Positions 45,064 through 47,550 are shown, numbered from the stretch's first letter. The stretch is DNA of 64,000 nt from an uncultured Pelagibacteraceae bacterium (GCA_902553555.1 CACDLE010000001.1:96965-160964); one strand, 5' to 3'. Translations and numbers: made by a program. Notes: generated from the letters alone by a model not told the origin.

Positions 45064-45639
45064 TCATAATTTTCTTGCCAAATTTCTTACTCTCCTCATA
45101 TGCTTTTCAAATTTTTCCTGCGACATTCCAGGCAAAACTTCATAAAATCTAATATAACTTGTCCTCATTCCTCCAAGCTTTAAAACTCCAGCTTTAATTC
45201 TTCTGAAAGGAATATTTTGAAACCATGTCTGGATACTAAACCAATTGCCACCATAACTCATACTCATTATTGCTCTCTTATTTTTCATAGCACCTGCAAC
45301 TGGATAACCCCAATTACCAACTAATCTTTTAAATGAAAAAAAAAATTTTGGAGCGAGTGTGATGTCAATGAAATTTTCCATGATCGCAGTTGCCCTTAAG
45401 TTATAACAAGGTGAAATCATAAATAATACGTCACTTTTAACTAACCTTTTTCTGTAATCTAAAATTTGCTCACTAGGTTCAGAACCGTCATAATAGGGTA
45501 TAGGTTTTTCTTCATGCAAATTAATTAAATCAATTTCGTGACCCAGTTTTTCTGCCTCCTCAATAAATGTATCTCTTATTGAAGCATTAAAACAACTTTT
45601 TGTATTATGATGACCGTAAACAATAAATATTCTACTCAT
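45064..45639 (-). CDS. Flavodoxin-like NAD(P)H-dependent oxidoreductase (MdaB/KefF family)
   Basis: IVYGHH..SCFN, EIDLINL, SPCYN..TAIMENFID. Confidence 0.8.
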   Translation of the reverse strand: MSRIFIVYGHHNTKSCFNASIRDTFIEEAEKLGHEIDLINLHEEKPIPYYDGSEPSEQILDYRKRLVKSDVLFMISPCYNLRATAIMENFIDITLAPKFFFSFKRLVGNWGYPVAGAMKNKRAIMSMSYGGNWFSIQTWFQNIPFRRIKAGVLKLGGMRTSYIRFYEVLPGMSQEKFEKHMRRVRNLARKL

Positions 45640-45857
45640 TTAATTTTTTTAAAATAATTAATAATCTCTTCTACTCTAATAAATTTAACACCAAAGATAA
45701 ATCCTAAACCAGCTCCATACCAGACAGCCCCAGCTAAACCATATCCGTCTATGCTTATATCTACTTCATAATAGACTTGTATTTTTCTCACAAAATAATA
45801 GAAAATTAAAGCCCCAATTATTCCGTTGATAAAAAAAAATTTATTTATCTTCCTCAC
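45636..45857 (-). CDS. Small two-TM hypothetical protein
   Basis: Two hydrophobic segments; probable GTG start 45857; 4-nt overlap with the downstream gene. Confidence 0.55.
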   Translation of the reverse strand: MRKINKFFFINGIIGALIFYYFVRKIQVYYEVDISIDGYGLAGAVWYGAGLGFIFGVKFIRVEEIINYFKKIK

Positions 45858-46002
45858 TTTCAACTTTATCCTTCCAAAAAAATATGCCAGTTCCTCCACC
45901 TATTAGAATTGCCGATACTATCCAAGCCGATTCGTGTTTTACAAATATGGTAATTACGCCAGCTAAAACTAAAAGTATGCCTAAATGTCTATTTTTCATC
46001 AT
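45841..46002 (-). CDS. Small two-TM protein, 53 aa (not in ORF track)
   Basis: Hand translation MMKNRHLGILLVLAGVITIFVKHESAWIVSAILIGGGTGIFFWKDKVESEEDK*. Confidence 0.7.
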   Translation of the reverse strand: MMKNRHLGILLVLAGVITIFVKHESAWIVSAILIGGGTGIFFWKDKVESEEDK

Positions 46003-46012
46003 TTATCTTTTA

Positions 46013-46042
46013 TTGACATGTATCAATGTTATACAATAGAAT
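46013..46042 (+). promoter_or_regulatory. Sigma70-type promoter
   Basis: TTGACA-N18-TAGAAT; predicted +1 near A46049. Confidence 0.7.
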
Positions 46043-46048
46043 TAGCTT

Positions 46049-46096
46049 ACCATCCACATGGTCAGAAAGTGGCTCATCTACATGAGTTAAAAGTAG
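46049..46096 (+). ncRNA. Structured leader RNA: two tandem 24-nt H-type pseudoknot units
   Basis: ACCAT-CCAC-ATGGT-CAGAAA-GTGG followed by CTCAT-CTAC-ATGAG-TTAAAA-GTAG; three compensatory base-pair changes between units. Confidence 0.75.
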
Positions 46097-46122
46097 GTTG
46101 AATAAACTAACAAGGAGAATGT

Positions 46123-46314
46123 ATGGACAGACATACAAAACTGTTAAAAGAATTCAGCCGAAGCAAAACACAGGCTGAACTCTTAAATAAATTAAATAAA
46201 TCCAGAAAAGCCATTAACACTGGAAACTCAGGCACTTTTGGCTATAGGTTAAAAGAAGGTACGAATGCTGGAAAAGTTCTTAAACATTTAAAAAAGACTT
46301 CAGATAATATTTAA
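46123..46314 (+). CDS. Small basic hypothetical protein, 63 aa
   Basis: AAGGAG RBS at 46112-46117; own promoter and 3' hairpin. Confidence 0.85.
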   Translation: MDRHTKLLKEFSRSKTQAELLNKLNKSRKAINTGNSGTFGYRLKEGTNAGKVLKHLKKTSDNI

Positions 46315-46321
46315 CTCTTGT

Positions 46322-46344
46322 AGGGGTAGCAGCCAGCTACCCCT
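46322..46344 (+). terminator. GC-rich hairpin at the 3' end of the 63-aa gene
   Basis: AGGGGTAGC-agcca-GCTACCCCT 9-bp stem, 7 nt after the stop; no immediate U tract. Confidence 0.7.
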
Positions 46345-46479
46345 CAAAAATTAATTTTCCAAACCTCATCTTGTACTTCGTGAGATGATATAACTAAGTT
46401 AGATATACATATAGATATAAGTAATTAGGGCATTATTTACTAATTTGTATTTTTCGAAAAGACGTATATCTTACGAATC

Positions 46480-47550
46480 ATGGAAAAATATTTAATTATT
46501 TTAAACTTTTTCGTTCTTTTTGCTTTAATTGCGGTAGTTTTCTTAATTTTAAAGAATAATAGAGAAAAAAAAGAGAGAGAAATTCGAGAAAATGAGAGTT
46601 TTAAAAATGAAAACGACAAATTTGAGGAATTGAAAAGGACTGTTTCAGAAAGATTAGAAAACGTTTCAAATTCTTACAATACCTTTTCAAACAAAATTAC
46701 CAAAGATATTACTGACTCTTTTACTAGATATGAGAAAGACGTCAAAAATTTCAATGAAAAAGTTCAAAACATGAATGAAGTTCAATCTAATCTTACCAAA
46801 ATTTTTTCCAATGTTAAAAAATTTGGAACAGCAGCTGAATTTTCTTTAGCTTCTCTTTTAAAAGATTTATTAGCCCCAAGTCAGTATGTTCCTAACGCAA
46901 AAATAAAATCTGATAGTCAAGGAACAGTTGAATTTGCAATTAAATTACCTAAGAATATTTTAGTAGCAGTAGACTCTTTTTTTCCTGCAGCAATTTTAGA
47001 AAGAATAAAAGACGCCGATGAAACAGATAATAAAAAATTTTCGGCTGATGCTAGACAAGAGCTAGCTGATGCCATAGATGAAAAGGCAGAAAAAATTAGT
47101 AAAAAATATATAGAGCCACCAAAAACAACACCTTTTGGCGTTCTATATTTGCCTACTGAGAGTTTATTTTACGAAGTTTGTAATCACAGACATAAAAAAA
47201 CCAAAGAGCCTTTACTTCAAACTCTTCAAAGGGAATACAATATTATGGTTCTTGGACCTACTACTTTATCAGTATTTCTACAAAGTTTACATATGGGATT
47301 TGATACACTTCAAGTTCAAGTAAAAAGTAAAAAAATCTACGAGGACCTACAAAAGTTAAGGTATAATTTTAATAATCATATGAAAGTTATTGAAGAAATT
47401 TATAAATATACAAATCTGTCGTTAAAAAAAATTGAAGAAGCAGGAAAATCAGGAAGATCAATTACCAATGTTTTAGAAAATGTTCAAGAACCAGAAGCAA
47501 TTGATGTATCTCCAGAAAAAAATACCAATAATTTAAAAGTTTTAAAATAA
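46480..47550 (+). CDS. rmuC: DNA recombination protein RmuC
   Basis: N-terminal TM plus coiled coil, KKFGTAAE, VEFAIKLP, VDSFFP, KYIEPPKT, LYLPTESL, GPTTL. Confidence 0.9.
   Translation: MEKYLIILNFFVLFALIAVVFLILKNNREKKEREIRENESFKNENDKFEELKRTVSERLENVSNSYNTFSNKITKDITDSFTRYEKDVKNFNEKVQNMNEVQSNLTKIFSNVKKFGTAAEFSLASLLKDLLAPSQYVPNAKIKSDSQGTVEFAIKLPKNILVAVDSFFPAAILERIKDADETDNKKFSADARQELADAIDEKAEKISKKYIEPPKTTPFGVLYLPTESLFYEVCNHRHKKTKEPLLQTLQREYNIMVLGPTTLSVFLQSLHMGFDTLQVQVKSKKIYEDLQKLRYNFNNHMKVIEEIYKYTNLSLKKIEEAGKSGRSITNVLENVQEPEAIDVSPEKNTNNLKVLK

Follow-up and report, generated by a model that had tools for sequence, protein, structure and literature searches.

A tandem pseudoknot leader in a Pelagibacteraceae genome

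The window analysed here is a stretch of 64,000 nucleotides (nt) from an uncultured Pelagibacteraceae bacterium (GCA_902553555.1, CACDLE010000001.1:96965-160964), and the element in question is a cassette at positions 46013-46344. Two small RNA pseudoknots form the leader of a monocistronic mRNA of ~300 nt, in which promoter, pseudoknots, A/U-rich spacer, Shine-Dalgarno (SD) sequence, a gene for a basic protein of 63 amino acids (aa) and a GC-rich hairpin follow one another. The leader is a real, expressed and strongly conserved RNA family that occurs in several genera and families of SAR11, in a T4-like phage contig and in gammaproteobacterial metagenome-assembled genomes (MAGs). The cassette is made up of the following features.

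46013..46042 (+): sigma-70-type promoter, with TTGACA at 46013-18, an 18-nt spacer and TAGAAT at 46037-42 (11/12 consensus matches)
46049 (+): RNA 5' end and probable transcription start, at the first paired base of unit 1, marked by a contig end and a conservation step
46049..46072 (+): pseudoknot unit 1; stem 1, 46049-53 with 46058-62; stem 2, 46054-57 (CCAC) with 46069-72 (GUGG); A-rich linker, 46063-68
46073..46096 (+): pseudoknot unit 2; stem 1, 46073-77 with 46082-86; stem 2, 46078-81 (CUAC) with 46093-96 (GUAG); linker UUAAAA, 46087-92
46097..46122 (+): unstructured A/U-rich spacer with the SD sequence AAGGAG at 46112-17, then a 5-nt gap to the start codon
46123..46314 (+): gene for the 63-aa basic protein, with ATG at 46123; N-terminal helix and G-rich beta hairpin predicted; a conserved marine family
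46322..46344 (+): GC-rich 9-bp hairpin after the stop codon, 46322-30 with 46336-44 (-20.8 kcal/mol)

Each unit is a minimal H-type pseudoknot, with a stem 1 of 5 bp, a 4-nt loop paired to the 3' tetranucleotide and a 6-nt A-rich linker. The units stand head to tail and are identical at 15/24 positions, differing at positions 1, 2, 7, 13, 14, 15, 16, 17 and 23; six of the nine differences make up three compensatory swaps (1 with 14, 2 with 13, 7 with 23) and the remaining three lie in the linker. A sequence-only reading of this DNA had described exactly these repeats and swaps at 46049-46096, and it was also right about the ribosome-binding site, the reality of the 63-aa gene and the 9-bp hairpin at its 3' side.

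Conservation and covariation of the fold

The two-unit fold is retained at 154 loci (48 unique cores). Fold statistics were taken from group-wise alignments (A6 and A7) and from a register-anchored parse, because a MAFFT alignment (A3) that mixed leaders with and without inserts misplaced unit 2; a covariance model from insert-free seeds (R1) caught insert-type leaders in part only. In alignment A6 (31 leaders), 98.9% of cells pair; shifting the partners by 1-3 columns lowers this to 24-31%. Double-sided changes occur in 8/17 pairs, including 2/4 and 3/4 pairs of the pseudoknot helices 2 and 4, respectively, and the covariation score of 0.413 (0.199 when shuffled) was attained in 0/500 shuffles. 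The insert-bearing group (A7) is 99.7% paired and includes one stem position at which G-C, C-G, U-A and A-U are all found.

Among 43 structural haplotypes in the register-anchored parse, all five positions of unit 2 stem 1 and positions 1-4 of its stem 2 are paired in 43/43, with up to five pair types per position; positions 1-3 of unit 1 stem 2 are paired in 43/43 as well, with A-U/U-A and C-G/G-C swaps, and unit 1 stem 1 covaries from U-A to C-G. The loop and partner of unit 1 occur as CCAC/GUGG, UCAC/GUGA, GUC/GAC, CUC/GAG and CGC/GCG. For unit 2, stem 1 occurs as CUCAU/AUGAG, CCGAU/AUCGG, UGCAU/AUGCA, AGCAU/AUGCU, GGCAU/AUGCC and CGCAU/AUGCG, and the loop and partner as CUAC/GUAG, CGAC/GUCG, CGC/GCG, GAUC/GAUC and GCC/GGC. 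Compensatory changes are found in all four helices, so that both marks of an H-type pseudoknot, a covarying stem 1 hairpin and a covarying pairing of its loop with a 3' segment, are present, and the two pairings of each unit that had been proposed for the window are preserved in homologous leaders. In some lineages one unit or both have a variable, covarying hairpin inserted in the A-rich linker. No variation is seen in the A-U and U-A pairs that close stem 1, in the AAA ahead of stem 2 or in the first C-G of stem 2.

No other part of the locus is as constrained as the leader, which is kept more tightly than base pairing by itself calls for. In a set of 23 unique sequences of close relatives, the minor-allele fraction drops abruptly at 46049, from 0.384 in the preceding 6 nt (46043-48) to 0.043 in unit 1, and is 0.000 in unit 2; at ORF (open reading frame) codon positions 2 and 3 it is 0.063 and 0.258. 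Nested minimum-free-energy folding of the leader gave z = -0.04, which is uninformative because nested folds cannot represent pseudoknots. The pseudoknot fold is physically plausible, since its size and A-rich linker match those of the smallest stable pseudoknots, the luteoviral frameshift knots and preQ1-I.

Transcripts and their 5' end

Expression was judged from assembled RNA contigs, with uncovered parts counting as no evidence. Fourteen RNA runs contain parts of the stretch, and the 20 runs that contain any of it come from 13 studies. Metatranscriptome contigs from four studies together span 46049-46309, and one RNA contig covers 46049-46255 uncut. One contig (run X3, a poly(A)/SMART-type metatranscriptome) begins exactly at 46049, behind 17 non-genomic letters, TCAACGCAGAGTACGGG, which we take to be the tail of a template-switch oligo. 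Because this tail is joined there, the contig begins at the 5' end of an RNA; the reverse transcriptase had already passed both knots, which makes a stop caused by structure unlikely. The end lies 7 nt downstream of the -10 hexamer and coincides with the step in conservation.

The RNA thus probably begins at the first paired base of unit 1, where the start had been predicted from the promoter, and not downstream of the repeats. By this contig, the leader also has the feature of ompA-type stabilisers, a paired structure with at most 1-2 unpaired nt at the 5' end, 46049 being the first base of stem 1.

Distribution of the RNA and of the protein

A second covariance model (R2) found a match in 24/151 Pelagibacterales genomes, one copy in each, and in most SAR11 genomes the RNA and the small-protein gene travel together. 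They also occur apart. Throughout genus g5 (8/8 genomes), tandem pseudoknots precede a basic ORF of 48 aa without recognisable homology (hhalign probability 0.3%); this ORF is present in 8/8 g5 genomes, has one weak match elsewhere, and lies in a neighbourhood that differs from the window's. A profile search for the protein in g5 and the gammaproteobacterial MAGs found nothing convincing. Genus g8 has the protein, as a 70-aa homologue led by the glutamine riboswitch RF01739 (60.2 bits; gathering score, 35), and the R2 scan of g8 genomes found no pseudoknot leader. This riboswitch is the only RF01739 match in the 151 Pelagibacterales genomes, and it sits exactly at the small-protein gene.

The g5 loci (L285-L288, L294-L301) have features of their own. 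An extra hairpin of the type AUGCAUGGCU...AGCCAUG, covarying with CAUAC/GUAUG, stands before unit 1; ATGCAT palindromes overlap the promoter and may be a DNA operator; and the 48-aa gene is followed by a GC-rich hairpin and then by the TTGAC of the next promoter. Genus g2 (L289-L292) gives 30-bit model matches to degenerate leaders with no ORF, which retain unit 1 stem 1 but lack its 3' partner as well as stem 1 of unit 2; these copies are probably relics of a lost cassette.

Outside SAR11, two gammaproteobacterial MAG contigs (35-36% GC) have RF01739 (59.7 and 66.4 bits) immediately preceded by three tandem units. Neighbours were checked in L317, where array and riboswitch lie between a divergent gltB and a Gcw_chp porin-like gene. 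These loci came from a scan of genome contigs with a loose IUPAC pattern, whose matches were otherwise mostly due to chance and in unrelated taxa, and were kept only when confirmed by R2. Across the family the arrays hold 1-3 units, and the module can take the place of a glutamine riboswitch or lie next to one. The sequence-only reading had seen a stand-alone RNA-protein module in the cassette; that view is not supported, as each partner occurs without the other in g8, g5 and the gammaproteobacterial MAGs. Three things lay beyond the reach of such a reading: the connection to glutamine riboswitches and nitrogen genes, the phage copy and the spread of the family outside Pelagibacter.

Seven IMG/VR contigs combine the unit-2 pattern with a 64-67-aa homologue, and one of them (L306) has cellular neighbours. 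Another, L305, holds tandem pseudoknots and a 67-aa homologue together with UvsX, UvsY, a gp32-like single-stranded DNA-binding protein and a virion protein, which identify it as a T4-like phage contig. The cassette there (L305:2540-2811, +) is flanked by an aminotransferase-like gene on one side and by the uvsY-uvsX-gene 32 block on the other, and looks like an auxiliary gene. A tblastn search against GenBank phages gave no match.

Absence from catalogues

The leader family is absent from Rfam 15 and from the searchable literature, including the SAR11 surveys PMC2704228 and PMC6429828, so the earlier suggestion that it might be an already catalogued Pelagibacter motif was not borne out. Rfam 15 has no match to it even at E <= 10; Meyer 2009 (PMC2704228) describes no such motif. 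Searches of the window for RF01739 and RF01704 gave no match even at E <= 10, while the same tool finds RF01739 at 60-66 bits in L079, L080, L317 and L327. The preQ1-I covariance model (RF00522) gave no match in 45500-46900 at E <= 10, and over the full window none that reached the gathering threshold.

A SAR11-specific riboswitch candidate, the 'RS05825 motif', has been placed near rmuC in HIMB5 (Stav 2019, PMC6429828), the gene that also neighbours the present leader in the window. Identity with the present leader was considered and rejected, NC_018643 1096977-1096812 being an unrelated three-hairpin RNA that leads a 181-aa ORF. In our set this candidate is L284:3013-3178 (-), which equals NC_018643 1096812-1096977; its 181-aa ORF (MATLKQINANRKN...) lies ~1.8 kb upstream of rmuC and exonuclease I.

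The small-protein family and the surroundings of the cassette

Homologues of the 63-aa protein are found in 55/101 related genomes and in 303/401 genomes of the order, and the family comprises 1371 clusters when grouped at 90% identity and 162 when grouped at 50%. The protein has no match in Pfam, NCBIfam or Atlas. An AlphaFold2 model from 66 sequences has a helix at residues 3-27, with a block-mean pLDDT (predicted local distance difference test) of 87-94 over residues 1-20; the remainder is weak, including a beta hairpin at the conserved NGTSGY-IK-G-N-GK motif. Two Joint Genome Institute rows label a homologue 'biotin operon repressor'. The AlphaFold2 models (pLDDT 67.6 and 72.2), with one helix and a weak hairpin, do not bear out the idea of a winged helix. 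Homodimer prediction, run without controls, scored 0.00, which counts neither for nor against a dimer.

Across the window's genus the gene keeps its chromosomal place and synteny, with a 53-aa membrane ORF and a flavodoxin-like reductase in divergent orientation to it. One copy, in L044 (G033:C1:356323-356475), is broken by four stops (two TGA, two TAA) in otherwise conserved synteny. A paralogous subfamily (56-62 aa, with a GANGT-(L/Q)-(D/E)-Y motif) directly follows an erpA/iscA-like Fe-S gene and has no pseudoknot leader. That upstream gene ends in CGCGESFK (L083, L087, L170-L182 and L186-L189, from other SAR11 genomes), and some of the paralogue copies have a conserved intergenic element of their own, rich in GCATATC and TGCAT repeats, in which mutually exclusive hairpins are possible.

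Downstream of the stop codon, a GC-rich hairpin of differing sequence is found in nearly all homologous loci. The one in the window does not fit the intrinsic-terminator consensus, and one RNA contig runs through it; it may be an end-stabiliser or a terminator that does without a U tract. Between this hairpin and rmuC lies a 134-nt A/T-rich spacer (46346-46479), whose position matches that of the 'PBC-5 DNase binding motif'; Stav 2019 lists this motif upstream of RmuC and exonuclease I in HIMB5 (PMC6429828). On the other side, a pair of small membrane-protein ORFs that overlap each other (53 and 87 aa; 45636-46002, -) is divergent from the cassette and stands ahead of a flavodoxin-like flavin mononucleotide reductase. 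The 53-aa ORF is kept beside the cassette across the window's genus.

Function of the leader

We tentatively favour, at somewhat less than even confidence, a reading in which the 'mini-pseudoknot array', as this marine RNA family absent from the catalogues may be called, serves as a portable sensor that regulates the glutamine/nitrogen regulon in cis and acts via the mRNA 5' end. Each unit would be a small sensor for a metabolite or factor, with glutamine or another nitrogen-status signal as candidates. Folding of a unit would bury the 5'-terminal nucleotide in stem 1, and this burial would set 5'-end-dependent decay, ribosome loading on the unstructured spacer, or both, and with them the amount of small protein, which may act like the cyanobacterial glutamine-synthetase inactivating factors. 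A sensor at the 5' end is preferred because the RNA starts at +1, is constrained at the sequence level, forms arrays of 1-3 units, which we liken to tandem low-affinity glutamine aptamers, and is found, ahead of a small basic protein, in place of a glutamine sensor or beside one. There is precedent for a glutamine sensor in that position: in the Synechocystis gifB leader, a glutamine aptamer controls the small glutamine-synthetase inactivating factor IF17 (PMC6212724).

Several points weigh against this reading. The 5' end is given by one contig in one run, and a purely structural cap accounts for the +1 position equally well. That a ligand or factor is sensed is something we infer, and the link to nitrogen is one of association only. 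No RF01739 was found in the window's own genome (63% complete), and the cassette's neighbours in the window are a flavodoxin-like reductase, small membrane ORFs and RmuC, not nitrogen genes. The smallest known natural aptamer, preQ1-I, has about 34 nt; the unit, at 24 nt, falls below it and has almost no conserved unpaired nt besides the A-rich linker. Unit 1 is dispensable: L012 has a plain hairpin instead, and genus g7, with its single knot, lacks it. A riboswitch expression platform, whether an alternative anti-SD pairing or a terminator, was not found across the leader lineages; no conserved pairing between the pseudoknot region and the SD/start region was seen across them, and the spacer is not the same from one lineage to another. 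Riboswitch platforms of the classical kind, translational or transcriptional, are therefore not evident.

A more specific version goes further, and we regard it as rather improbable. Each 24-nt unit would be the smallest natural aptamer, for a nitrogen-status metabolite (glutamine, or a complementary signal such as 2-oxoglutarate), and would act by a novel mechanism, ligand-dependent burial of the 5' nucleotide; in SAR11, which to our knowledge lack the usual PII/NtrBC circuitry, it would control a small basic glutamine synthetase inhibitor like IF7/IF17, and pelagimyophages would carry the cassette to reprogramme host nitrogen flow.

In the ranking that we infer, the sensor stands ahead of a constitutive 5' structural cap, itself unlikely but the strongest competitor, and of a platform for a trans-acting protein. 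Two of these kinds of reading, a tandem riboswitch and a nuclease-blocking cap at the 5' end, had already been listed by the sequence-only reading. As a cap, the stacked knots would bury the triphosphorylated first nucleotide, shield the short A/U-rich mRNA from decay that depends on the 5' end (of the RppH, RNase E or RNase J type) and insulate what lies downstream, with the 3' GC hairpin acting likewise and nothing being sensed. Such a role fits an RNA whose 5' end is its first paired base, whose 3' hairpin is conserved in nearly all loci, which serves unrelated ORFs, in which a plain hairpin stands in for unit 1 in L012 and for which no expression platform was found; 5'-terminal stem-loops are also known to stabilise bacterial mRNAs such as ompA. 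Yet a simple hairpin would suffice for this purpose, whereas two near-invariant pseudoknots are kept across families, phages and another bacterial class, in arrays whose copy number ranges from one to three. A generic stabiliser would not be expected to replace or adjoin a metabolite sensor, and placement of the array at a 5' end could not be confirmed in the gammaproteobacterial MAGs.

Somewhat less likely again is a docking platform, with one site per unit, for a putative trans-acting RNA-binding protein other than the encoded one, such as a nitrogen-status regulator, S1 or an RNA chaperone in SAR11, SAR86-like and phage-infected cells. Pseudoknots are known protein sites, as in the S15, S4 and T4 gp32 operators, and the sequence-level invariance of junction and linker, the repeated sites and the independence from the downstream ORF would all suit such a protein. 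The units, at only 24 nt and with most bases paired, speak against it, as does the hypothetical nature of the candidate protein.

An autoregulatory operator with two sites, as the sequence-only reading had proposed, would have the 63-aa basic protein bind both knots of its own mRNA and repress its own translation in the manner of T4 gene 32 or ribosomal proteins. The layout, a 5' pseudoknot followed by an unstructured A/U-rich leader, does resemble the T4 gene 32 operator; the protein is basic, with a predicted helix and poorly ordered hairpin like many nucleic-acid binders; and RNA and gene occur together in most SAR11 genomes. Because RNA and protein are separable, however, this reading is improbable: g8 has the protein without the knots, g5 and the gammaproteobacterial MAGs have the knots without the protein, the erpA-adjacent paralogues lack the leader, and in the gammaproteobacterial MAGs the array leads a porin-type gene.

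Operators at the DNA level, in which the palindromes ACCAT-N4-ATGGT and CTCAT-N4-ATGAG would bind a dimeric repressor just downstream of the promoter, are very improbable. Both stem 1 elements are perfect inverted repeats at +1 to +38, and the AT...AT core of each is invariant. Against this, the outer half-site bases vary freely, in up to five pair types, provided that complementarity is preserved, and the loop covaries with a 3' segment that is not symmetric to it. G-U pairs, which are A-C mismatches on the other strand, occur, and variable covarying hairpins are inserted into the linkers; these last two observations argue for an RNA on the + strand.

A miniature type III toxin-antitoxin pair, another of the earlier proposals, in which the repeats would be a ToxI-like antitoxin RNA and the ORF a toxin, shares with such systems the tandem pseudoknot-forming repeats upstream of a gene and can practically be dismissed, given only two 24-nt units, a 26-nt unstructured spacer with the SD and no terminator-like site between repeats and ORF, a 63-aa protein with no similarity to ToxN, AbiE or CptN and no Pfam or NCBIfam match where a ToxN/AbiEii/CptN-type endoribonuclease has about 170 aa or more, a gene that is syntenic and chromosomal across the genus, and an RNA that leads other genes elsewhere.

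SAR11 are among the most abundant bacteria of the ocean, with very few protein regulators, and much of their control is thought to be RNA-based. Within the known structured cis-regulatory leaders built on H-type pseudoknots, this one is set apart by an unusual array-at-+1 architecture and by the association with the nitrogen regulon, the latter giving a first functional lead for an unannotated small-protein family of >1300 clusters. Should the array sense a ligand, it would represent a riboswitch class both new and exceptionally small, and would open a new way into marine nitrogen regulation; should it be a structural cap, it would still be an unusual portable 5' module.

Comparison with known systems

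ToxI antitoxin repeats are likewise head-to-tail, pseudoknot-forming and upstream of a protein gene; they differ in unit length and number and in distribution, and the present cassette has neither their intervening terminator nor an endoribonuclease toxin. Luteovirus-type frameshifting knots, such as that of beet western yellows virus (BWYV), share a stem 1 of 4-5 bp, a stem 2 of 3-4 bp and an A-rich linker of 6-7 nt, and some relatives of the window leader carry the linker AACAAA or CACAAA, as these knots do. The minimal BWYV frameshifting pseudoknot has 28 nt, and knots this small can be stable. Luteoviral knots lie inside coding regions and pause ribosomes, whereas those described here lie at the mRNA 5' end, upstream of the start codon.

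The T4/T2 gene 32 operator has the same order of parts, with a 5' H-type pseudoknot, an unstructured A/U-rich stretch with the ribosome-binding site and the gene for a small protein of nucleic-acid-binding-like character; unlike it, the present leader has two knots, and knot and encoded protein occur separately. PreQ1-I (RF00522) is also a minimal H-type knot, with a stem 1 of ~5 bp, an A-rich 3' linker along stem 1, a stem 2 of 3-4 bp and possible tandem arrangement. In the window's units, by contrast, the 4-5-nt loop is wholly paired, there is neither an obvious pocket nor a link to queuosine genes, and the SD lies outside the knot.

The glutamine riboswitch (RF01739) differs from the array in structure, being a three-way junction of ~53 nt with an E-loop where the units are simple 24-nt H-type knots, and the two have no sequence or structure similarity. 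What they share is their place: RF01739 is a short cis leader, often in tandem, before small basic protein and nitrogen-assimilation genes of marine bacteria and phages, and it holds the position of the pseudoknots in g8 and stands directly 3' of three mini-pseudoknots in the gammaproteobacterial MAGs.

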